From assembly GCA_039181265.1 (NCBI GenBank), contig JBCDCU010000002.1:1-63317 (forward strand): a stretch of DNA of 63,317 bases, written 5' to 3'. Of the stretch, positions 1,875 through 12,215 are shown one piece after another (the stretch's first letter is position 1; each line of letters starts with the position of its first letter). The notes under the pieces were generated by a model. The model saw nothing but the letters and a program-made list of their open reading frames with translations. It had not been told where the DNA came from and made no database searches. The stretch comes from Pseudomonadota bacterium. GTDB lineage: Bacteria; Pseudomonadota; Alphaproteobacteria; Rhizobiales; JACESI01. The translations under genes and the position numbers were made by a program.

Positions 1875-2077
1875 GGAAGAGGGGCGTTTCCCGGAAGATG
1901 GGTCATGGAAGAAACCGGGGTGGCGGGTGAGGCTAGTCCGGTTTCATGCGTGCAAGGTGCACTGAAGTAAGTTTGAGCCGCGCCGTGTAATAAACACCCT
2001 CCTGTTGTCCGATCCCGGTTTGCGTGGCACGGTGGCAGCCGACCATTCCCCTGATCGAGGAGGATAAGGGGCTCCCC

Positions 2078-4171
2078 ATGCTGCATTTCCGTCTTATCGC
2101 CGTCATCCTGATTGTTGTTGCCGGATCATCACCGGCCTTTTCCAAGATCATTCCGGAAGCTGCCATCAAGTCCGTGGTTTCCGTTCTGCCGGTCTGGCCA
2201 AACCGGCCGCAAGGCAACGGTTCAGGCCGAAGGCCGAATGCGCCGGAGGGAAGCGGCGTTGTCATTGATGCGAGCGGTGTCATCGCGACGGCCTGGCATG
2301 TGATTGCCCCGGCGCGGCGCATTGATGTGCGCCTTTATGACGGGCGTGTCCTTCCAGCAGAGCTCATCGGCCATGATGAGCGCAGCGACATCGCGCTTTT
2401 GAAAATCGACGGCCCTCTGATCCCGTTCGACTATGCGGAGCCACCGGAACTCTCGTCGGACGTCTGCGCGGTCGGAAATGCTTTCGGGCTTGATCTCACG
2501 GTGACGTGCGGCGTTGTCTCCGCGATCAATGTTGCCAATGCCGGGTTCAATCCGGTGGAAGACTTCATCCAGACGGATGCGGCGGCAAATCCCGGAACCT
2601 CCGGCGGGGCCCTCATTGATGGAGAGGGCAAACTTGTCGGCATGGTCTCTGCGATCTTCGCGTCAGGCGCGGACACGAATATCGGGATTAATTTTGCCGT
2701 ATCGGCCCGTCTTCTGGATCGCGTCGCGCGCGATCTCCAGGCAACCGGCAGCGTCGATTATGTCGATGCGGGATGGCAGCTCGCGCGTTTGCGTGGACAA
2801 ATGGCGGCCCGGATTGCCGGTGCGCTTGTTCAGGATGTTGCGGCAGGAGGTGTTGCAGAAGAGAGCGGCATTCTCGCCGGTGATGTGATCTCCAGGGTGA
2901 ATGGCCGCTTGATCAGGCGACCGCAAGATGTCCGCTCCGAGCTTGCCGTCATCCGGCAAGGCGAAACGGCAGATGTCCAGATTTTTCGTGGCGGGCGGAG
3001 AATTTCCGCAAGCTTGACCTTCGGCACGGCAGAGGAAAGCCCCGACAGCGATGTGCCCGCTCCTGCAGACGAAGGGGAGACGCAAGCCGAACGCTCAACA
3101 GATCCCGATTGTCCGTATCCGGAAGCCGTTTGCGCGACCAGACAGGCGGTCTTCCCGGTGGAAAGCTTTGATCCGATTGCAAGTGCCGTTCGGATCGCAC
3201 CGGATCTTCTGATCACCAACCGCCATGTCGTCGGTGACCGCAAGAGCGCGAACGTCATCACGCCGTCCGGGCCAATCGAGGCGGATGTGATCGCATCCTC
3301 CTATCGCGGGGATTTGGCCCTCTTGCGGGTCTTGGGCCTGCCTGAGGATGGCGTTGTTCTGAGGCCTGACACCGAACAGGATTATGATTACACAACGGGC
3401 ACCTTTTACGCCGTCGGTGCCGATGTGGCGCGCCGCGAAATTCGGGTGTTTGAGCCGGGCGAAACCATCATTCCGCCTTCAGATGACGTGCCGTTTGCAA
3501 GGCACCATGTCACATCGCGTATGCAGCCCGGCGTGAGCGGCGGGGCGCTTGTCAATGAGAGAGGCGAACTCGTGGGGATAGCCGTCGGTGGCGGGGAGGG
3601 GCGCTACGAGGCGCTGCCGCTTCCCCAGGTGAAGCGCCTTCTGGACGGTCAGGACGACACGCGGGCTGCGGCCATTCAGGCGGACCTTGGGCGGTCCTAT
3701 GTCCTGTGTGCAGCGGCCCTTGATGCCGCCCGCGAAACACCGAGAGGGCGCCCGCATGATCCCGGTCTGGTCGACGCCATGCGGGATACCTGCCTTGCCG
3801 CTGAAAACCCCGGACAGATGATTGATGCTGGCCGGATGCTCGGAATTGGTCGCGCCACCGATGAAGCGATCCGGCTTCATGAAGCTGTTGTGGCGCGCAC
3901 GCCGAACTCGATCAACGCCCGCCTGTCACTCCTTGTTTCGCTGCAATTGGGCGGTCGGTTCCCGGAAATGCTACCCCATGCAAGCTGGATCATGGATATT
4001 CTCGATGACGACCCGCAGGCCCTGAGGTTTGCCATTCAATCCGGCGTCTGGGGCGGTGATCCGGACCTCGCAGAACGGGCTTACAGTAAGTTGCTGGAAG
4101 CGGATCCACGGCAGGCGCAGGCCGCCCGCCGCTTCATCGATAATGCCCCGCCAGCGCCGCCGCGCCGGTGA
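2078..4171 (+). CDS. Secreted trypsin-like (S1C/HtrA-type) serine protease with two protease domains, one PDZ domain and a C-terminal helical-repeat (TPR-like) tail
   Basis: The ATG at 2078 is preceded by GAGGAGGA (2057-2064) and followed by a signal peptide (MLHFRLIAVILIVVAGSSPAFS). Domain 1 has H (TAWHV), D (SDIALLKI) and S (NPGTSGGAL). A PDZ-like segment follows (GILAGDVISRVNG). Domain 2 has H (TNRHV), D (GDLALLRV) and S (QPGVSGGAL). The listed GTG start at 2024 is less likely. Confidence 0.8.
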   Translation: MLHFRLIAVILIVVAGSSPAFSKIIPEAAIKSVVSVLPVWPNRPQGNGSGRRPNAPEGSGVVIDASGVIATAWHVIAPARRIDVRLYDGRVLPAELIGHDERSDIALLKIDGPLIPFDYAEPPELSSDVCAVGNAFGLDLTVTCGVVSAINVANAGFNPVEDFIQTDAAANPGTSGGALIDGEGKLVGMVSAIFASGADTNIGINFAVSARLLDRVARDLQATGSVDYVDAGWQLARLRGQMAARIAGALVQDVAAGGVAEESGILAGDVISRVNGRLIRRPQDVRSELAVIRQGETADVQIFRGGRRISASLTFGTAEESPDSDVPAPADEGETQAERSTDPDCPYPEAVCATRQAVFPVESFDPIASAVRIAPDLLITNRHVVGDRKSANVITPSGPIEADVIASSYRGDLALLRVLGLPEDGVVLRPDTEQDYDYTTGTFYAVGADVARREIRVFEPGETIIPPSDDVPFARHHVTSRMQPGVSGGALVNERGELVGIAVGGGEGRYEALPLPQVKRLLDGQDDTRAAAIQADLGRSYVLCAAALDAARETPRGRPHDPGLVDAMRDTCLAAENPGQMIDAGRMLGIGRATDEAIRLHEAVVARTPNSINARLSLLVSLQLGGRFPEMLPHASWIMDILDDDPQALRFAIQSGVWGGDPDLAERAYSKLLEADPRQAQAARRFIDNAPPAPPRR

Positions 4172-4202: not shown

Positions 4203-5516
4203 CTAGTCGCGGTCCGGATCGAGGATCCAGCCGACTGCAACCAAGCCCGGTTTCCGAGGGTCGGCCGCGCGTTTAAAAATCGCTGACTTCAGATCTGCCG
4301 TCGAAAGATCCGGGTTCTTTTCCAATAGTCGGGCAGCGAGGGCAGCGATCCTGGGAACCGCATAGCTGGTGCCCGATGCCCGTCCTTCCGATCCGCGAAA
4401 ATCGACAACTGGCTGGTTTTCGGCTGGCACCATGAGGTCAACGCTGCTCGCGCCCCAGTTGGAGCCGTCGGCAAGGTGACCGAAGGCATCGGATGAGGTC
4501 ACCACAATCATATTCTCAAGCGGCAAGGCGGCGGGCCACAGGAGATCCGCATCGATGTTACGGCCATCATTGCCTGCCGAGACAATCGCAAGCATGTGCG
4601 GGCGCTCCTGCATGGCCGCTTTAAACGCAATCCAGTCGGTTTCCCTACGACTTCCAAGCGGCATGGATAAAATCCTTGCGCCTGATTGATCGGCCCGCGC
4701 GACGAGATCCGCCATGCGGGTCATATCCGGTCTTGGATAGCGAAAGGGAATGAGGGCAGCGTTCGGGGCTTCGCGGGCGACAATGGAAGCGACCGGCGTT
4801 CCATGGCGCACCGGCTGAAAGACGTTGCGCGCCGTATCCCCGTCATAGGGAAGATCATCAAGATCCCAGAAATCATAACCGAGCGGGATGCCTGAGGAAT
4901 CGCGGGCGAGGCGGTTTCTGAAAAAGGGGAGATCATAGGCAAGGCCGCTATCGACGAGTGCCACGCGCGCGCCGCCGGGATCGCGTCCTGCGGGCCAGGA
5001 GGCCTGATAGGTCTCGGTCCACATGACCTCATCAAGGTCGGCAGACAATTGCTCCAGCCTCATGTTTTCATCGTCTTCGCGCACAATGCGGCGCGCCGAT
5101 CTCACGGTGCAGGCTCCGTCGGTTTGGGCCTGCATGACGGGCAGTAACTCGTTTCCATTTTCCGGCGCGCGAAAAAGGTCTGCGCTGAACCTGCGGAGCG
5201 CGCCATTCACCCGCGTATAGACGAGCCGCAGTTCATGACCGTCCGGTAGTGCGAAGATGAATTCCGATCTCTCGACGGGACGCCCCGCAGGCGATTGCTC
5301 GGAGTTGAGATACCAGGCACCCGGCAAGTGCGTCTGGAGGGAAAGGCCGTCGGTGTCCTCTGCCGCACAGGCGTTTTCGATTGCCATGCGCACCCAGTCT
5401 TCGGGGTTGGCTGACTGGCTTTCGGCAAAGGATGCGAAGGGAACATAAGCGCTCGCAAGGAAAACGATCGCAGCGAGTGATCGCCATCGGGGAAACGTCG
5501 AGCGTGGTTTGCGCAT
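4203..5516 (-). CDS. Secreted S8 (subtilisin-family) serine peptidase
   Basis: The catalytic triad motifs are present: D (VALVDSGLAYD), H (HGTPVASIV) and S (SGTSYAVPRIAALAA). The ATG at 5516-5514 gives MRKPRSTFPRWRSLAAIVFLASAYVPFASFA, which is a signal peptide. The listed TTG at 5525 adds 3 codons. Confidence 0.85.
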   Translation of the reverse strand: MRKPRSTFPRWRSLAAIVFLASAYVPFASFAESQSANPEDWVRMAIENACAAEDTDGLSLQTHLPGAWYLNSEQSPAGRPVERSEFIFALPDGHELRLVYTRVNGALRRFSADLFRAPENGNELLPVMQAQTDGACTVRSARRIVREDDENMRLEQLSADLDEVMWTETYQASWPAGRDPGGARVALVDSGLAYDLPFFRNRLARDSSGIPLGYDFWDLDDLPYDGDTARNVFQPVRHGTPVASIVAREAPNAALIPFRYPRPDMTRMADLVARADQSGARILSMPLGSRRETDWIAFKAAMQERPHMLAIVSAGNDGRNIDADLLWPAALPLENMIVVTSSDAFGHLADGSNWGASSVDLMVPAENQPVVDFRGSEGRASGTSYAVPRIAALAARLLEKNPDLSTADLKSAIFKRAADPRKPGLVAVGWILDPDRD

Positions 5517-5587
5517 GAAAGACAATGCCTTTCTTTAAATCGAACAGGGGCGACTTCACCCCAAAGCACGGTGTCAGTCAAAGGCCG
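5494..5587. repeat. Direct repeat copy A (94 bp): first 23 nt of the S8 peptidase CDS plus 71 nt of its upstream region
   Basis: It aligns without gaps to 10418-10511, with 88/94 identical by hand alignment (mismatches at repeat positions 8, 14, 31, 40, 75 and 83). Confidence 0.9.
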
Positions 5588-5868
5588 AGCTGTGGGTCGG
5601 GCATAATGCCATGGTCGGATTTCCTCTGGATTAGGAAACTATGCCGTGGTGGCGCGTGCCCGTAAGAAAAGCTGCCACTGGGGGAGGGCAAGCACAAAGC
5701 CTGGTCCCGGCGTTTATTGGTTTGTCGGGACGAGCCGCGCGACCATTTCATGCGGGCTCCATGCCAGTGGTCGTTGCGGGCCATAACCGTATTATTGGCT
5801 ACTAGAATAAGGTTCATGCAGCACTAGCTCCAAGGTCGTTCTGAATCGATTTTGTAGAGTGTTTTTCC

Positions 5869-8800
5869 ATGAATAATGATCTGGTTGAAAAATCCCGTGC
5901 CCATGAATCTGCTGGAATGTTGCTTGGTGAAACGCCGAAAATTATCCTTGGCGTAAGCGAGAAAATCGCAGAAACGCTGGCAAATGTAGGCGTCAGAACA
6001 GTGCTGGACCTCGCGGAAAGTGAGCTTTTTAATCAGCTTGAATTTCTCCGCACCAATCCCGATGCCAATTCCTTGGAGCGCAAGCGAACGCTAACGGCGC
6101 TCGTCGGATCCGAAACGGCGAGCGATCTTTCGTTGTTGACGCCGAATGATCTTGTTCGCCTGGATCCTGGGGTGCGTACTGAACTGGGTGCAGCGTTTCC
6201 GACATTGGATGCAATGGCGACCTGGCCACCTTTTGCTCGGGCGCGAAGGCTGCGAGAGGGCGCGAAGCCGCAGCCATTACCGCAGGAAACGACGTCCACC
6301 AAAATAAATGAAAGAGAAGGGATTCCTGATGAGCTCGTTCCGGTTGCGCGACGGTATGCGACCCAAAAGACATCGGTAACGCGCAATTTCTTAGACCGCT
6401 TTGGCGCGCCGGGTAGTGATTTGATCCTGGACCCTTCGCCCCTTACGCGGTTGTCTCTGACGGATGCGAGAACGGCCCAATTCGACGTCCCGGCGCTCGG
6501 CGCAAGACTGACGATGGAACACACACTCACCCCTGAGGGTATTTCGCTTGGCCGCCTTCTGCATTCTCTTGCACTGGCGCCTGGGGAAAGCACCAATGTG
6601 GCTATTGTCGATTTTACACGCGCCGTTGGAACCTCAGCAGAGGAAAATATCAATCAGACAGAGGCGTTGAGCGCTGAAACCGAGCAAAATCAGGAGGCGA
6701 ACAGCGATACCAGTGTTGATATCTCGGAAAACCAAAGCGGACGCACCGACATCGACAGCACAGTCGATACCGAGAGCGGATCGGTCTCAGCAGGCGCCGG
6801 TGTTGGCGGTGGAGGAGGCGGGGTTCTGGCAGGGGTCGGCGTCGGCGGCACAAGAACCAATGCCACAACCACGACGGACACCTCTGTCGTTACGAGCACT
6901 CTTGGAACGCGCAACGTCGATGCGCAGGCATCCGAAGAGCTTCTCCGCCAGACGCAGCAGGCAAGTGCTTCGGAACGCGATCGCCGGGCCAGCTTGATTA
7001 CTGAAGTATCCGAGGCGGAAGGGTCCCGGGCGGAAACCCGAAATGTGACCAACTACAATCACATGCACACGCTTTCGGTCCACTATTATGAAGTTGTGCA
7101 GATTCATGAGGTCTCAGTCCGCGCGGTCAGGGCGGAGGCGCTGCTCTTTACTCCTGTCGCGCCGATTGATTTCTCAGACCCCGCCCTGATTGCCGAGCAT
7201 CGTGAAGCCTTGGCCGCGGCAGCACCCGATGAGCGTACGCGGCGTCTGATCCTGGGCGTCGACCGAATGATTCCGTTGGAACTCTTGACGAAGATCGGCA
7301 AGTTTCGTGGATCGCCTTTCCGGAGCTACGGCCCGGCAGATGCAGCCCTGCTCGGCATTACAGGCTCTTACGAAACGGGACGCTACAGTGTCCCACCGGA
7401 CCTTGAGATCAACTTCATTGAGTTTGACGCGATTGGCCCAGAAAATGCGCCTTTCATGACACCCAAACAGGTACTTTTCGAATTGGAAGGTGGCATTGTC
7501 GTTGACATTCCGATACCTGAGCAACCTAGTGGCTTTTTCGTAGGTGCACCGGTGGATCCGCCCATTAAGGTGGAGGCTTTGCGCCGCGTTAGGTTTGTCT
7601 ATTTCGCACAACCGCGTCCATCCGAACCCGTTGCATCGTTCCAACTCTTCATTAAACGCGGCGATATTACGGCAAGCGTCTCTTTCCGGGCGGACACAAC
7701 CGGCCACCAGAATACCGAGACAATCCTTGGAGCGAAAGACGATACCAGTCGTCAGCAGGTGATCTCCACCCTTCAGCGGGATCGGATGCGCTATTCCATC
7801 GCGGTGTATCAGGCGCTTGGCCCCCAGACGCTGGTTGCGATGTTTGCGGGCAAGACGTTCGCGGGTCTTGATCTTAGCAGCGCGATTGAACCGCGTATTG
7901 TCGCGACGCATGGAAACCTGCTCGGCTTTCCGCTGCGGATCGACGAGAATGGGGATGGTGCTCTTTCTGCCTGGTGGAAAGACTGGCTGGAGCGCAATTT
8001 CCATCCTGAGCGCGTTTCAACCGACTATGTTGCAGCGCCAACAGGCGGTGTTCACGCCGAGGGAATATTGGGTCGGGCGAACACGGCTGAACGGTTCGAT
8101 CTCACCCGTTTCTGGGATTGGCAGGATTCGCCAATACCGAACCTGCCACCGCGCATTTCGGATGTCTCGGCAGAGAGCCGCGCGTCGGTTGGCGGTGCAC
8201 CGACGCCCGGTTCGCTCGATCCAAGCGTTGTCAATATTCAGAACCTGCCGGCGATGACCGATCCGGTGAATGCACAAGCCGCGCTCAATGCTGCGCTCGC
8301 ATCTACCCCGTTTCGCGATATGAGTGGCCTTGCGGCAGCCGATGCCGTGAGCCGCCAGGGGATTGGATCAACAGTGGATCTGGCACAGACCACCGCACGG
8401 GAATCGGCTTCGCTTGCAAGAACAGCGTTATCACAGGTGCTCGCTGCCGGGGCGACAGGTCCAAAGGCTTCGACGAACTCTGATGTTGGCGCCCACATTG
8501 CGTATCAGGAAGATCGCGAAAAGGCACGTGGTGGCATCACGGAAGAACCGGGCGCACCGGACCGCACCAGTGAGAACACGTCCGATCCAACATCAGCAGC
8601 CGATAGAACCAAGACTGCTGAAGCAGCGCGCGCACTTATTCATGATGGTATCGACGAAGGCAAAAAGGCAGCGGACGACGAAGCAAAGAAGAAATCGGGC
8701 AAGTCCAGCAAACCGGCACCTGATCTTGGTCATGTGGTCTGGCTTTCCGATACGCCGGGGGCGCAGGAATTGTTGCTTTACAATTTCCCGCTGGGTGACG

Positions 8801-10278
8801 CAAATCAGCCTTTGCACCCCAGGCATATCGAAGCGTTGCGCAAAATTTCCGTTCAGATTGGCGGGATTGACGATATTGCTGTGGTTGAGGGGCGGGCAAG
8901 TACGACCGTGACAAAATCCGATGAAGCGGGTCGTGACAATAGCAGCCTGTCCATCACGAGAATGGAAAATGTTTGGGTTGCGTTGATGGAGTTTGCTCTT
9001 GTGCCGGCGCCCTTCAGTTCAGTCACCAAGCAACAAGCCTATGCTGCGACATCTCCCATTCGGCCTAAATACCCTGCACTTGCCAAAATACCGACCGGAC
9101 CGGGGGATGAGGATGCCGTGGAACGAAGCGTTCTCATCCGTCTAAGCCGTCAGGTCGACCCGCGCATCAAACCGGAACCAACACCCGAAGTTCCGGGTAT
9201 CTCGACCTTTGGACATGTGGCGATGATCGAGGAAATCGATGGGGATGCGAATATCATCAGCCAGCAAAGCGGCGGTATCTTTTTGAATGCCAATGACACA
9301 AGTCGGGAAATTGTAAAGGGTGACAAGATCGGCGAAGTACGCGGTATCGGCCAGATCAACGCAAAGAAGGTCGAAGGAAATACGCTGATCGCAAATGGAG
9401 GCGGGTTGAACATCAACCTCATTTTCCCGGGTGTCGACGCTAAACCGGGGGAGAAAGTTGAAGCTAAAGCCGAAGCACAACCGACCAAACAATGGGTGAT
9501 AGAGATCCGCCGCCCATGCGCGAGCGGCCTGTCGCCGGTTTCCGCCTTTGATGATGTCGTCCGCTTGATCAAGGCCTTACAACAGGTCGGGGGTGTCGCC
9601 CCGAGTGTGGAACTCGAGATTTCGGTGCCGGAAGATCTGGGCACCGCAACGGTTGTGGACTTCAACCCAAGTAAGCTGATCTCCACGGCAGCAGGCGAAC
9701 TGGCTGAGGCAATCTCTCAAAGCGAAATCTTGAAGCCACGATTGTCAGGGTTAGTATTTGGCCGCACACAAGTCGATGCGGTGATTAGACCCGTATATGA
9801 AAACGGTATTCCCGACGGGTTTGTTGCGCCACTTTTGAATCTCACCGGCGAGGGTATGAGCTACTGGCCGCGCGAGGCAAATGATGCTGAGACGACGGAT
9901 ATCCTGAAACGCTTCGACTATGAGACTGATACGCCTTTGCGTTTGTCGGACTGGAGCGAAACGACCAAGATCACGGATGTTAAACTGAGCTTTTCAAAAA
10001 GTACCGTTGGCGATGACATTGCAAGTGCTGCGGCATTCGTGGTCGAGCTTGCCGAGAAGATCCCCGCGCTTGGCGTGGTTGTGCCGGGGGACCTCATCTC
10101 CGAACTCGGCAATCTTGCGACAAACGCTTCGGCTCTTGCGCAACTGGCCGGCGGCGGAGAAAAAATGACATTCTCCGCTGAAGGGCAGCCGGAGCGGGAG
10201 TTCTCGAGTTTTATAAGCGCTTCCAGTGCCGCGACGTTCCGGTTGGAGGAAGGGCTGTTCACCAAAGCGAAGAAATAA
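5869..10278 (+). CDS. Giant hypothetical protein (1469 aa) with a glycine-zipper-like low-complexity core and an internal OmpA-like peptidoglycan-binding module; family not recognised
   Basis: This is a single uninterrupted 4.4-kb ORF with no N-terminal signal peptide. The N-terminus has helix-hairpin-helix-like segments (GVSEKIAETLANVGVRTVLDLAESELF). There are conserved-looking blocks LHSLALAPGESTNVAIVDFTR (6568-6622) and NVTNYNHMHTLSVHYYEVVQ (7051-7098). They flank an S/T/D/E/N-rich stretch containing SAGAGVGGGGGGVLAGVGVGG (6781-6850). No SD is obvious at 5869, so the start is uncertain by a few codons. Confidence 0.8.
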   Translation: MNNDLVEKSRAHESAGMLLGETPKIILGVSEKIAETLANVGVRTVLDLAESELFNQLEFLRTNPDANSLERKRTLTALVGSETASDLSLLTPNDLVRLDPGVRTELGAAFPTLDAMATWPPFARARRLREGAKPQPLPQETTSTKINEREGIPDELVPVARRYATQKTSVTRNFLDRFGAPGSDLILDPSPLTRLSLTDARTAQFDVPALGARLTMEHTLTPEGISLGRLLHSLALAPGESTNVAIVDFTRAVGTSAEENINQTEALSAETEQNQEANSDTSVDISENQSGRTDIDSTVDTESGSVSAGAGVGGGGGGVLAGVGVGGTRTNATTTTDTSVVTSTLGTRNVDAQASEELLRQTQQASASERDRRASLITEVSEAEGSRAETRNVTNYNHMHTLSVHYYEVVQIHEVSVRAVRAEALLFTPVAPIDFSDPALIAEHREALAAAAPDERTRRLILGVDRMIPLELLTKIGKFRGSPFRSYGPADAALLGITGSYETGRYSVPPDLEINFIEFDAIGPENAPFMTPKQVLFELEGGIVVDIPIPEQPSGFFVGAPVDPPIKVEALRRVRFVYFAQPRPSEPVASFQLFIKRGDITASVSFRADTTGHQNTETILGAKDDTSRQQVISTLQRDRMRYSIAVYQALGPQTLVAMFAGKTFAGLDLSSAIEPRIVATHGNLLGFPLRIDENGDGALSAWWKDWLERNFHPERVSTDYVAAPTGGVHAEGILGRANTAERFDLTRFWDWQDSPIPNLPPRISDVSAESRASVGGAPTPGSLDPSVVNIQNLPAMTDPVNAQAALNAALASTPFRDMSGLAAADAVSRQGIGSTVDLAQTTARESASLARTALSQVLAAGATGPKASTNSDVGAHIAYQEDREKARGGITEEPGAPDRTSENTSDPTSAADRTKTAEAARALIHDGIDEGKKAADDEAKKKSGKSSKPAPDLGHVVWLSDTPGAQELLLYNFPLGDANQPLHPRHIEALRKISVQIGGIDDIAVVEGRASTTVTKSDEAGRDNSSLSITRMENVWVALMEFALVPAPFSSVTKQQAYAATSPIRPKYPALAKIPTGPGDEDAVERSVLIRLSRQVDPRIKPEPTPEVPGISTFGHVAMIEEIDGDANIISQQSGGIFLNANDTSREIVKGDKIGEVRGIGQINAKKVEGNTLIANGGGLNINLIFPGVDAKPGEKVEAKAEAQPTKQWVIEIRRPCASGLSPVSAFDDVVRLIKALQQVGGVAPSVELEISVPEDLGTATVVDFNPSKLISTAAGELAEAISQSEILKPRLSGLVFGRTQVDAVIRPVYENGIPDGFVAPLLNLTGEGMSYWPREANDAETTDILKRFDYETDTPLRLSDWSETTKITDVKLSFSKSTVGDDIASAAAFVVELAEKIPALGVVVPGDLISELGNLATNASALAQLAGGGEKMTFSAEGQPEREFSSFISASSAATFRLEEGLFTKAKK
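8769..9150 (+). other. OmpA-like (peptidoglycan-binding) module inside the giant ORF
   Basis: The segment LLYNFPLGDANQPLHPRHIEALRKISVQIGGIDDIAVVEGRASTTVTKSDEAGRDNSSLSITRMENVWVALMEF...ERSVLIRL follows the OmpA_C pattern. That pattern is F-x-fd-sa-L, then L..ia..l, then i-V-x-GhtD, then N..LS..RA..V, then NRRVEI. The assignment rests on motif recall only. Confidence 0.55.
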
Positions 10279-10417: not shown

Positions 10418-10511
10418 AACGTCGGGCGTGCTTTGCGCATGAAAGACCATGCCTTTGTTTAAATCGAACAGGGGCGACTTCACCCCAAAGCGCGGTGTCC
10501 GTCAAAGGCCG
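10418..10511. repeat. Direct repeat copy B (94 bp): relic copy of the S8 promoter and start region, between the giant ORF and betC
   Basis: It is 88/94 identical to 5494-5587. It keeps the ATG (10440-10438, minus strand) and MRKARPTF, but the frame stops after 14 codons (stop at 10398-10396). Confidence 0.9.
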
Positions 10512-10529
10512 TGGGGAGGGCGCTCTGTT

Positions 10530-12026
10530 CTATTCACCCCTTGGAAATCTTTGCGCCTCTTCCAAAACGTTCAAATCCATATGGTTGCGCATATAGCGTT
10601 CACTGGCTTTTTGCAGCGGCTGAAAATCCCAGGGGTAATAGTCGCCATTGCGCAGGGCCTCATAGACAACCCAGCGCCGCGCCTGACTTTCGCGCACTTG
10701 AGCGTCGAACGCCTTTAGATCCCAGCGCTTGCCGGCTTCTTCTTCAAACATAGCCAGCGTGTCGGCATGGGTGGGATCTTTCGCCAGATCGTTGAGTTCA
10801 TTGGGGTCGGCTTCAAGATCGAACATTTGCGAGGGATCGAGCGCGCATTTGGTGAACTTGTAGCGCCGGTCACGCAGCGACACCATCGGGGCGTAGCTTG
10901 CTTCTGCCGCATATTCCATGGCAACGGCTGCCCGCTCGCCGCCAGCGGCAATTGGCGCAAGGTCAACGCCTTCCGTCCAGGGCGCGATCTCATCGAGCGA
11001 GACACCAGCAAGGGCGGCCAGCGTCGGCGTCACATCGATTGTGGAGACAGGGGTCTCGATTACTCCCGGTTCAAAGCCGTTCGCCGAGATCATCAGCGGG
11101 ACACGGGCAGAGCCCTCATAAAAGCACATCTTGTACCAGAGACCGCGCTCGCCAAGCATATCGCCATGGTCGGAGACAAACAGGATTGCAGCCTCCTGCC
11201 GGGTTGCTTCAAGCGCCTCCATAACCTCACCGATCTTGTCGTCGAGATAGGAGATGTTGGCGAAATAGGCCCTGCGGGAGCGTTTGATGTCCTCTTCCGT
11301 AATCTCGAAATTTTCATGGTCATTCGCATCAAGGATGCGCTTCGAGTGTGGATCCAGATCGGCGTAGCCAATTGCCGCGACGTCCGGCAGAAGATGAGGG
11401 CAGTCCTCATAAAGATCCCAGTATTTGCGGCGGGCGACATAGGGATCGTGCGGATGGGTGAAGCTGACAGTCAAAGCGCATGGCCGCGGGTCGTGGCCCC
11501 GCGCGAGATCATATATCTTGCGGGTGGCGTGATAGGCGACCTCGTCGTCATATTCCATCTGATTGGTGATTTCCGCGACGCCCGATCCGGTGACGGACCC
11601 CATATTGTGGTACCACCAGTCGATGCGCTCACCGGGATTGCGGTAATCCGGCGTCCAGCCGAAGTCCGGCGGATCGATATCGGTCGTGAAGCGCTCCTCA
11701 AATCCGTGCAGCTGATCCGGCCCGACAAAGTGCATTTTGCCTGAAAGCGCGGTGTAATAGCCAGCGCGGCGCAGATGATGGGCATAGGTGGGAATGTCGG
11801 AGGAAAACTCCGCCGCATTGTCATAGACCCGCGTGCGGCTCGGCAATTGACCGGACATGAAACTCGCGCGGCCCGGTGCACACAGGGGTGAGGCGGTATA
11901 GGCATTCTTGAAACGCGTGGAGCGCGCCGCGAGCTTCTTAAGGTTAGGAACATGGAGCCAGTCTGCCGGACCGTCTGGAAACAGCGTCCCGTTCAACTGA
12001 TCGACCATAAAAATCAGAATGTTCAT
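10530..12026 (-). CDS. betC: Choline-sulfatase
   Basis: The N-terminus is MNILIFMVDQLNG and the sulfatase C-x-P-x-R motif is present (SPLCAPGRASFMSG). The ATG at 12026 is preceded by GGAGGG. The listed start at 12164 adds 46 unsupported codons. Confidence 0.85.
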   Translation of the reverse strand: MNILIFMVDQLNGTLFPDGPADWLHVPNLKKLAARSTRFKNAYTASPLCAPGRASFMSGQLPSRTRVYDNAAEFSSDIPTYAHHLRRAGYYTALSGKMHFVGPDQLHGFEERFTTDIDPPDFGWTPDYRNPGERIDWWYHNMGSVTGSGVAEITNQMEYDDEVAYHATRKIYDLARGHDPRPCALTVSFTHPHDPYVARRKYWDLYEDCPHLLPDVAAIGYADLDPHSKRILDANDHENFEITEEDIKRSRRAYFANISYLDDKIGEVMEALEATRQEAAILFVSDHGDMLGERGLWYKMCFYEGSARVPLMISANGFEPGVIETPVSTIDVTPTLAALAGVSLDEIAPWTEGVDLAPIAAGGERAAVAMEYAAEASYAPMVSLRDRRYKFTKCALDPSQMFDLEADPNELNDLAKDPTHADTLAMFEEEAGKRWDLKAFDAQVRESQARRWVVYEALRNGDYYPWDFQPLQKASERYMRNHMDLNVLEEAQRFPRGE

Positions 12027-12215
12027 GCCGACCCTCCAGCTCTGTTTCTTCACCTTCGCATGCCGAGAGAATAGCGCCTTGGAACTGGTTCTCGGCAATC
12101 TTTTTTGTCGGTAGATTAAGGTGTATTTGAAAGCCCCGCAGTCTCCCCGCTCAGCGCGAGGCAATATCGCAATCCGGGTCGGCGCGCGTATGCTGCCGAT
12201 GACCTAACAGCACCT

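Follow-up and report, generated by a model that had tools for sequence, protein, structure and literature searches.

The open reading frame (ORF) at positions 5869-10278 on the plus strand of the DNA analyzed here (63,317 nt in all, hereafter the window) encodes a protein of 1469 amino acids (aa) that is a member of a large, horizontally mobile and unnamed family, in which a conserved core of ~880 residues is followed by a hypervariable tail. We give a probability of roughly 40% to the reading that this protein is a self-contained, polymorphic, cell-wall-directed and pore-toxin-like antagonist that breaches cell envelopes. ORF calling and translation identify the ORF, which begins with ATG, as a real gene, and the start codon is correct because homologs align from residues 1-5. 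An earlier reading of the DNA letters alone (the sequence-only reading) had singled it out as the largest gene in the window, which it is (the runner-up ORF encodes 715 aa), and as an orphan that could not be placed; curated families do give no match, yet thousands of homologs exist. The same reading had noted the absence of a signal peptide, and this proved true of the query and its family alike: the N-terminus of the 1469-aa protein is polar and has no hydrophobic leader, and an N-terminal hydrophobic segment is present in just 4 of 130 complete homologs.

Family membership rests on the first ~880 residues. At least 424 homologs of 900-1500 aa, sharing ~30-35% identity with the query, were recovered from 5.8 billion proteins, and exhaustive searching of 1.84 billion representatives with a profile yielded 4,042 clusters (formed at 50% identity) at E ≤ 1e-3, with 3,147 at E ≤ 1e-10 and 2,228 at E ≤ 1e-30. 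When one genome per species was scanned, at least 362 species had a member. Among the species listed are Bacteroidota, Actinomycetota, Chloroflexota, Myxococcota, Nitrospirota, Acidobacteriota, Gemmatimonadota and Verrucomicrobiota, as well as Pseudomonadota (several Legionella, Thiobacillus, Nitrosospira, Mesorhizobium), Bacillota (Paenibacillus, Pelosinus) and the haloarchaeon Salinigranum. Plasmid-borne copies were found in Bacillus tropicus, Haladaptatus, Streptomyces and Nostoc. Homologs are publicly named either “hypothetical protein” or after their tails, as in “M15 family metallopeptidase”, “DUF2272 domain-containing protein” and “OmpA family protein”, and this naming by tail alone has hidden the kinship of family members.

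The whole 1469-aa protein gave no match in Pfam, NCBIfam or PADLOC at E ≤ 1 and only noise in PHROGs, and sub-regions searched against the same four collections gave nothing beyond a sub-threshold OmpA match. Models of known anti-phage defence systems (PADLOC-DB 2.0) gave 0 matches at E ≤ 1, and sequence and profile searches of the PDB with the core gave noise plus a weak helix-hairpin-helix (HhH) match. Literature searches by domain combination and by conserved motif strings found no paper describing the family. The profile and structure searches thus placed the whole protein in no well-characterised family, and its earlier description as undescribed holds for Pfam, NCBIfam, PADLOC, PHROGs, the PDB and the searchable papers, all of which lack the core. 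Viral relatives were also sought, with no tblastn match in 50,697 phage records and none in IMG/VR. A phage origin of the gene was rejected on these results, the viral fold library having supplied one borderline match to the core model: A0A5K0U6Q4, a giant-virus (Yasminevirus) protein that is uncharacterised (probability 0.98, E = 1.1e-3, 15% identity over 349 aligned columns).

A divergent relative of 1756 aa is encoded on the Psychrobacter plasmid pP32BP2 (L008:4559-9829) and has an insertion of ~400 aa after a ComEA-type HHH_3 head. The order of its motifs is that of the query (LHSLTLAP..., NINYCHAL...) and its OmpA-like tail is query-like; the family is therefore broader than the core set of ~30% identity.

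Homolog coverage defines the architecture. In BLAST alignments of 119 homologs, coverage of the query is near-complete over aa 30-450 and 630-810, reduced over aa 480-600 and zero past ~aa 900. Since coverage stops at ~aa 820-880, the protein consists of an ~880-aa conserved core and a tail. The core was modelled with AlphaFold2 (aa 1-900, 33 sequences, mean predicted local distance difference test score (pLDDT) 64), and the gene divides as follows.

5869-10278, plus strand: complete gene, 1469 aa and stop codon, member of the large unnamed family.
5869-6264, plus strand: N-terminal helical, HhH-like domain, aa 1-132 (AlphaFold2 pLDDT ~90, conserved).
6265-6363, plus strand: P/E/T-rich linker, aa 133-165, modelled as disordered (pLDDT <50, composition).
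6364-7170, plus strand: beta-rich module with very long strands, aa 166-434 (AlphaFold2, invariant motifs).
6559-6588, plus strand: near-invariant motif LHSLALAPGE, in the block at aa 231-251.
6724-6978, plus strand: conserved long beta-hairpin, aa 286-370, with arms at aa 286-313 and 326-370 (period-2 conservation).
6808-6843, plus strand: Gly-rich, uncharged hairpin tip, aa 314-325 (conserved uncharged run, centre of the former “glycine zipper”).
7051-7068, plus strand: near-invariant motif NYNHMH, in the block NVTNYNHMH... at aa 392-415.
7174-8070, plus strand: beta-sandwich and helical middle domain, aa 436-734 (AlphaFold2, conserved).
8071-8520, plus strand: conserved segment modelled with low confidence, aa 735-884, the last part of the core (invariant columns, pLDDT <50).
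From 8107, plus strand: motif RFWDWQDSPIP (family form RFW(N/D)WQ(D/E)SPIP).
8311-8328, plus strand: conserved signature FRDMSG.
8521-8763, plus strand: low-complexity A/S/G/T/D/K linker, aa 885-965, where the variable tail starts (composition, no homolog coverage past ~aa 900).
8764-9144, plus strand: non-canonical OmpA-like module, aa 966-1092 (family profile and BLASTP, sub-threshold in Pfam).
9145-10275, plus strand: C-terminal region with no detectable relatives in the searches given below, aa 1093-1469.

The sequence-only reading had placed two HhH-like segments at residues ~27-110. A helical domain was confidently modelled at aa 1-132, but the HhH match itself is weak: the query matched Pfam HHH_5 at E = 0.38, the family profile matched the HhH of DNA polymerase IV in the PDB at E ~0.05, and the distant Psychrobacter relative matched HHH_3 at E = 1.5e-5 (25.5 bits, cutoff 27). 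In the beta-rich module, strands at aa 209-236, 241-256, 381-396 and 402-430 (pLDDT 70-90) bracket a long hairpin of low confidence (aa 284-349). The two well-formed blocks that had been reported ~140 aa apart lie here, ~141 aa from each other, and no other motifs of the family are as well conserved. Invariant or near-invariant residues are H232, L236, A237, P238, G239, E240, T242, R251, N395, N397, H398, H400, Y406 and E408.

The middle domain, modelled separately (AlphaFold2, aa 436-770, 75 sequences; pLDDT 84, predicted template modelling score 0.70), had no significant match in the PDB with Foldseek (best E = 0.02, template modelling (TM) scores <0.3), and the weak fold matches were to generic C2/PLAT-type beta-sandwiches at E = 0.03 or worse. 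In the last part of the core, invariant columns are R747, F748, W749, W751, S754, P755, P757, F815 and R816. Between the WNWQDSPIP and FRDMSG motifs, 144 of 213 family members (68%) have the string PxxxxDPxG[LIVM], of which the query holds a degenerate copy (LPAMTDPVNA, 8248-8280, aa 794-804). This string may mark a processing site or be coincidental; an Rhs-type autoprotease acting through PxxxxDPxGL was not adopted, given the single occurrence, the lack of Rhs repeats and the degenerate copy in the query.

Between the two conserved blocks lies a polar S/T/D/E/N/Q segment with the uncharged run SAGAGVGGGGGGVLAGVGVGG at aa 307-327, just as the sequence-only reading had described it. In an alignment of 131 homologs, conservation alternates with a strict period of 2 over aa 286-313 and again over aa 326-370. 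The conserved positions of one arm read E.Q.G.S.S.S...G; the other arm has G.S.Q.A.T...S.S.S.G.R followed by V.A.M.Q.V.D.T.Q.A.S.R, and the conserved face carries small residues (S/T/G/A). In neither arm did any of 5,000 shuffles reach the observed Fourier power at 180 degrees (p<2e-4), the helical period of 100 degrees was at chance level in the arms (p = 0.76-0.80), and flanking control regions lacked the period-2 signal. An uncharged Gly/Ala/Val/Leu-rich run of 12-49 aa separates the arms in nearly all homologs examined, and the spacing between the LALAPGE and NYNH motifs stays within 151-179 aa. As judged from this pattern of conservation, the Gly-rich run is the turn, or tip, of a conserved long beta-hairpin. 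It had previously been taken for a glycine zipper, that is, a helical membrane element, and for a signal-anchor that would leave the N-terminus inside and the C-terminus outside. Neither idea survives. A transmembrane helix was rejected, since the period is that of a beta-strand (2) and not of a helix (3.6) and the run is insufficiently hydrophobic (the peak 19-residue hydropathy of the whole protein, 1.68, lies outside it). Because a hairpin brings the chain back to the side from which it started, the N-in/C-out arrangement does not follow.

Beyond ~aa 885 the family is hypervariable. The tails encoded by 80 loci, together with those of the query and the Psychrobacter homolog, fell into 46 BLAST clusters, the largest of which has 20 members and no Pfam match; a profile of this 20-member tail type found nothing in the PDB. 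The tails that can be recognised are overwhelmingly peptidoglycan-binding or peptidoglycan-cleaving modules, namely OmpA, LysM, SH3_3, Peptidase_M23, M15_4, Hedgehog-N/M15_3, GH25 lysozyme, Amidase_2, Amidase_6, DUF2272, Peptidase_C70, DUF4056 and Beta-lactamase2, with single cases of PKD, Big_1, collagen, tyrosinase and DUF5675. Among the ~150 members scanned, none had a cytoplasm-acting toxin domain (nuclease, deaminase, ADP-ribosyltransferase or other). Tandem paralogs of one locus are ~75% identical through the linker that precedes the tail and diverge after it, which is the pattern of polymorphic toxins.

Two kinds of tail stand somewhat apart. One homolog ends in a tyrosinase central domain (E = 5e-29), which is not peptidoglycan-directed and departs from the general pattern. 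Tails matching the Hedgehog N-terminal signalling domain (E = 1e-52 to 1e-26), where Peptidase_M15_3 matches overlap, occur in the Bacillus tropicus plasmid copy (L007:7944-11258), in Pelosinus baikalensis (L037) and in one further representative; going by their sequence, these are probably bacterial Hedgehog-like DD-peptidase modules.

Haloarchaeal members carry M15 and DUF2272 tails. Haloarchaea have no peptidoglycan of their own, and peptidoglycan-directed tails in such hosts therefore favour a non-self, bacterial target. Bacteria-killing peptidoglycan hydrolases of archaea, many of them without a signal peptide, have been described (PMC12352652).

The sequence-only reading had recognised an OmpA_C-like module in the tail of the query, an assignment that Pfam leaves below threshold and that BLASTP and a family profile support. 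Pfam OmpA (PF00691) gave no match in the scan of the whole protein and, when the tail was searched on its own, reached 13.1-15.7 bits (E = 0.02-0.13) over aa ~982-1063, below the gathering threshold of 27.2 bits. Residues 967-1099, in turn, have a BLASTP match (E = 9e-9) in the OmpA part of the Psychrobacter homolog, which itself matches Pfam at 1.5e-5, and a profile built from 16 OmpA-type tails of the family, with the OmpA domain of P0002 (Pfam 2.3e-11) as its seed, matches aa 966-1092 of the query with 31 bits (E = 1e-11). Homology to bona fide OmpA_C domains is thereby established through intermediate sequences. The final ~370 residues had been called motif-free, and here the earlier judgement stands: ~377 aa have no detectable relative by any method tried. 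Searched alone, aa 960-1469 matched nothing among 5.8 billion proteins; jackhmmer found nothing for aa 1093-1469, phmmer and jackhmmer searches among family members found nothing past aa 1184, and a pairwise alignment of the last ~370 aa with the Psychrobacter tail was not significant (z = 1.5).

The gene stands alone. Across 80+ loci (BLAST clustering of ORFs within 6 kilobases (kb)) no neighbour is conserved except family paralogs and one ORF of ~144 aa, and the 125 immediate neighbours at 70 further loci fall into 139 different Pfam families, each found in two neighbours at most. Conserved neighbours, an immunity gene and protease partners were all rejected on the basis of these surveys. 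In the window itself, nothing lies between the 1469-aa gene and a repeat downstream of it. In one clade, the ~144-aa ORF, which has no signal peptide, begins 4-20 nt downstream of the family gene (L041:9676-10110, L049:7979-8413, L061:2420-2854 and L076:7653-8144) and lies between tandem paralogs in L061 and L076; it is a candidate for a tail-specific partner, for example an immunity protein or a chaperone. Some loci resemble defence or mobile islands: Polaromonas pH8NP2 (TIR, PIN, DUF262 and type I restriction genes), the Bacillus tropicus plasmid (SIR2, ATPase and helicase genes), Antarcticibacterium (type I restriction and toxin-antitoxin genes) and a Pseudomonas locus with a Peptidase_U49 gene nearby. 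The Mesorhizobium copy is near the conjugation genes TrbC and SLT, and other copies lie among housekeeping genes. A consistent defence-island context was dropped, as it was seen in some loci only.

When the core model was compared with the PDB using Foldseek, ranks 1-40 were all beta-barrel pore-forming toxins in the pore state, among them aerolysin, lysenin, iota toxin Ib, Epx4, gamma- and alpha-hemolysin, beta-toxin, CDTb, LukGH, epsilon toxin, Vibrio cytolysin and NetB, with anthrax protective antigen (PA) at rank 45. The hairpin segment consists of 68% G/A/S/T with 8% charged residues, and the hydropathy of its variable face increases only near the tip. On the strength of these model comparisons we treat the pore-toxin likeness of the core as a lead, statistically not firm.

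Taking the core and the tails together, we infer a mechanism in which the protein would leave its producer without a Sec or Tat signal, through lysis or an unknown route, its tail would dock on, or open, the wall of another, target cell, and the core would oligomerise, its hairpins inserting to build a beta-barrel that breaches a membrane. What the data show is the family membership, the architecture with its hairpin, the polymorphic tails, the stand-alone gene and the insertion of its segment; release, target, oligomerisation, membrane insertion and antagonism belong to the inference. The broad suggestion that the gene has an envelope-acting or toxin-like function rather than a housekeeping one is supported at that level. 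Only slightly less probable, in our judgement, is the wider reading that the family forms an unrecognised class of autonomous, leaderless, envelope-breaching proteins of bacteria and archaea, in which a barrel-forming core and an interchangeable peptidoglycan module would act with neither a secretion system nor an immunity partner. Such proteins would be antibacterial weapons used across domains, or else devices for lysis or defence that consist of one gene.

Several observations weigh against an envelope-breaching antagonist. The best toxin match in Foldseek has E = 2.9e-3, with TM-scores of 0.05-0.15, and the matches depend on the extended hairpin, which is modelled at pLDDT 30-40. No pore-toxin model of Pfam or NCBIfam (Aerolysin, ETX_MTX2, Leukocidin, Binary_toxB and others) matched the query or 33 homolog cores at E ≤ 1, and amphipathic alternation in the hairpin is not significant (mean per-sequence beta-moment z = 0.39, above 1.64 in 8%). 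Classical polymorphic toxins almost always have an adjacent immunity gene, and neither the 80+ loci nor the 70 further ones have a generally conserved one; secretion or delivery genes do not recur in the neighbourhoods examined, and there is no conserved secretion partner. The 1469-aa protein lacks a signal peptide, the conserved HhH-like head has no explained role, and tails are recognisable in only about one fifth to one quarter of the ~150 members scanned. In canonical OmpA-like domains the Asp of GHTD contacts diaminopimelate. In the query GHTD is replaced by GRAS (aa 1008-1011, in VEGRAS at 1006-1011), with loss of that Asp, as it is throughout an OmpA-like tail subfamily that reads EG(R)AS...N..LS..RA. 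Because the Arg motif N..LS..R is kept (NSSLSITR, aa 1024-1031) but the Asp is replaced, peptidoglycan binding by this module is plausible but not assured.

In the main rival reading, the leaderless state is that of a protein acting from inside the cell, a self-lysis or abortive-infection effector whose HhH-like head senses a nucleic-acid or stress signal, whose core perforates the membrane of its own cell from within and whose tail reaches the sacculus, with the logic of a holin plus an endolysin in one chain or of a gasdermin-like defence. A stand-alone gene would need no immunity partner, and the lack of a leader across the family (an N-terminal hydrophobic segment in 4 of 130), the patchy, plasmid-borne distribution and the island-like loci of Polaromonas, Bacillus tropicus, Antarcticibacterium and Pseudomonas all fit such a role. 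We nevertheless consider it unlikely. PADLOC gave no match, many loci lie amid housekeeping genes with no neighbour family enriched, and the peptidoglycan peptidase tails of haloarchaea would be useless in self-lysis. Moreover, a hairpin inserted from the cytoplasmic side would keep the tail in the cytoplasm unless it were threaded through the pore.

Delivery of an antagonist by a separate machine (an extracellular contractile injection system or a type IV, VI or VII secretion system), with the N-terminal domain as loading signal, is a different solution to the lack of a leader, and in our judgement an improbable one. Many effectors likewise have no leader and couple a conserved N-terminal domain to a variable effector part at the C-terminus, the Mesorhizobium copy is near TrbC and SLT, and the spread over Bacteroidota, Actinomycetota, Chloroflexota, Myxococcota and haloarchaea is similar to that of contractile injection systems as generally known. 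Only those systems, however, span Gram-positives, Gram-negatives and archaea, and the genes for their cargo normally sit beside the apparatus, whereas secretion or injection genes are not recurrent near this gene; a core of 880 aa also far exceeds known loading signals.

We give little credence to a non-toxic structural or adhesive role, in which the protein would be a wall scaffold or a DNA-binding matrix protein, its head binding extracellular DNA, its tail the wall, and the hairpin serving as a spacer or in fibre assembly. The HhH-like head, the match of the distant relative to the ComEA-type HHH_3 model, the tails that are only of binding or adhesin type (OmpA, LysM, SH3_3, PKD, Big_1, collagen) and a polar, G/A/S/T-rich hairpin that is not clearly amphipathic would suit it. 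The many lytic-enzyme tails (M23, M15, GH25, amidases) and the absence of an export signal do not, and extreme tail turnover with a patchy, mobile distribution typifies conflict genes.

Several known systems resemble the family in part. Beta-barrel pore-forming toxins (aerolysin/ETX-MTX2, alpha-hemolysin/leukocidin, anthrax PA, iota Ib and CDTb) are the only structural neighbours found for the core, all of them weak, and share with it long strands and one long Gly/Ser/Thr-rich beta-hairpin in a soluble protein; the family differs in being far larger, in its HhH-like head, wall-directed tail and lack of a signal peptide, in a hairpin without clear amphipathic alternation, and in giving no Pfam match and TM-scores <0.15. 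With polymorphic toxins (Rhs/YD, CdiA, LXG and colicin/pyocin-type modular bacteriocins) the family shares a conserved N-terminal part with a swapped hypervariable C-terminal module, tandem paralogs whose tails diverge and a distribution that is patchy and mobile, and with Rhs in particular the PxxxxDPxG[LIVM] string shortly before the tail in 68% of members, the same string that ends the Rhs core. Unlike polymorphic toxins, it has no generally conserved immunity gene, no associated secretion system and tails directed at the wall, and its core is unrelated to those of Rhs, CdiA, LXG and colicin (no Pfam match; a single DPxG string, no Rhs repeats).

In common with bacteriolysins and with bacteriocins that target peptidoglycan (lysostaphin, zoocin A, enterolysin A, pesticin, colicin M), the family has C-terminal M23, M15, GH25, amidase, LysM or SH3 modules aimed at the wall of a different cell, and pesticin and colicin M are likewise leaderless. 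Those proteins are 250-600 aa long, with neither the 880-aa core nor the hairpin, and in contrast to them the query has a binding-type (OmpA-like) module only and no recognisable hydrolase. Residues 966-1092 align to the fold of OmpA_C-like domains (PF00691: OmpA, Pal, MotB) and share N..LS..R, but have GRAS for GHTD and belong to a giant protein without a leader, near its end. CpnT of Mycobacterium tuberculosis has a channel-forming N-terminal domain and a C-terminal toxin and no classical signal peptide, and so, like the reading proposed for the family, puts a channel-forming part and an exchangeable C-terminal effector in one polypeptide; its secretion is ESX-dependent, the toxin is an NADase that acts in the cytoplasm, and the sequences are unrelated. 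The antibacterial peptidoglycan hydrolases of archaea (PMC12352652) resemble the family in their archaeal hosts and, for many, in the lack of a signal peptide. None of the building blocks is new in kind, neither the pore-toxin-like core with its single hairpin nor the polymorphic C-terminus nor the modules directed at peptidoglycan; what is new is the 880-aa core itself and the combination, both absent from Pfam, NCBIfam, PADLOC, PHROGs, the PDB and searchable papers.

If the antagonist reading is true, thousands of genomes, from Legionella, Pseudomonas, Bacillus and Streptomyces to haloarchaea, hold an unannotated one-gene device made of a pore-toxin-like core and a swappable cell-wall module. 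This would be a new class of interbacterial or archaeal-bacterial weapons, or of programmed-lysis effectors, and one would have to ask how a protein of 140 kDa without a leader gets to the wall. The tails, of which about three quarters or more match nothing, would then be a large natural library of new peptidoglycan-directed domains. The core merits a family model whatever its function.

In the window, the gene is preceded by an autotransporter beta-domain protein (147-1874), a 715-aa trypsin-like protease with a PDZ domain (2024-4171) and, on the minus strand, an S8 subtilase with a clear signal peptide (4203-5525), and is followed, also on the minus strand, by a betC-type choline sulfatase (10530-12164) that is 74% identical at the DNA level to the betC of a Rhizobium plasmid, a likeness that suggests an alphaproteobacterial source close to Rhizobiales. 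The boundaries of the gene had been called cassette-like, and two direct repeats of ~100 nt, 90% identical to each other and with the same terminator-like hairpin, do bracket it.

5494-5596, no strand assigned: left repeat copy, the true 5' end of the S8 protease gene (minus strand), with the signal peptide MRKPRSTFPRWRSLAAIVFLASAYVPFASFA.
10418-10520, no strand assigned: right repeat copy, just downstream of the choline sulfatase gene, a truncated duplicate of the S8 start, MRKARPTFRDCGAL*.

Elsewhere in the window the repeat core does not recur, and metagenome contigs contain no exact match to it; the exact 1469-aa protein was not found in the contig index. Since the right copy is a truncated S8 start with the same hairpin, a 4.9-kb segment containing only the 1469-aa gene entered between betC and the protease gene, with duplication of ~100 bp, and the gene adjoins the protease only because this insertion duplicated the protease 5' end. 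The proteases and the autotransporter, from whose presence an envelope-acting or toxin-like function had been argued, are therefore there but are bystanders, and serine proteases or other genes are not conserved beside homologs. The sequence-only reading's envelope protein, held N-in/C-out by a Gly-rich signal-anchor, tied to peptidoglycan by OmpA_C and working with these neighbours, is thus already largely refuted: the uncharged run, the OmpA-like module, the adjoining proteases (the S8 enzyme with its signal peptide) and the autotransporter all exist, but the run is a hairpin turn that leaves sidedness unchanged, its hydropathy falls short of that of a transmembrane helix, the neighbours are conserved nowhere and the protease adjacency stems from the insertion. 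The form of the duplication suggests that the segment arrived by Campbell-type single-crossover integration or with an unusually long target duplication.

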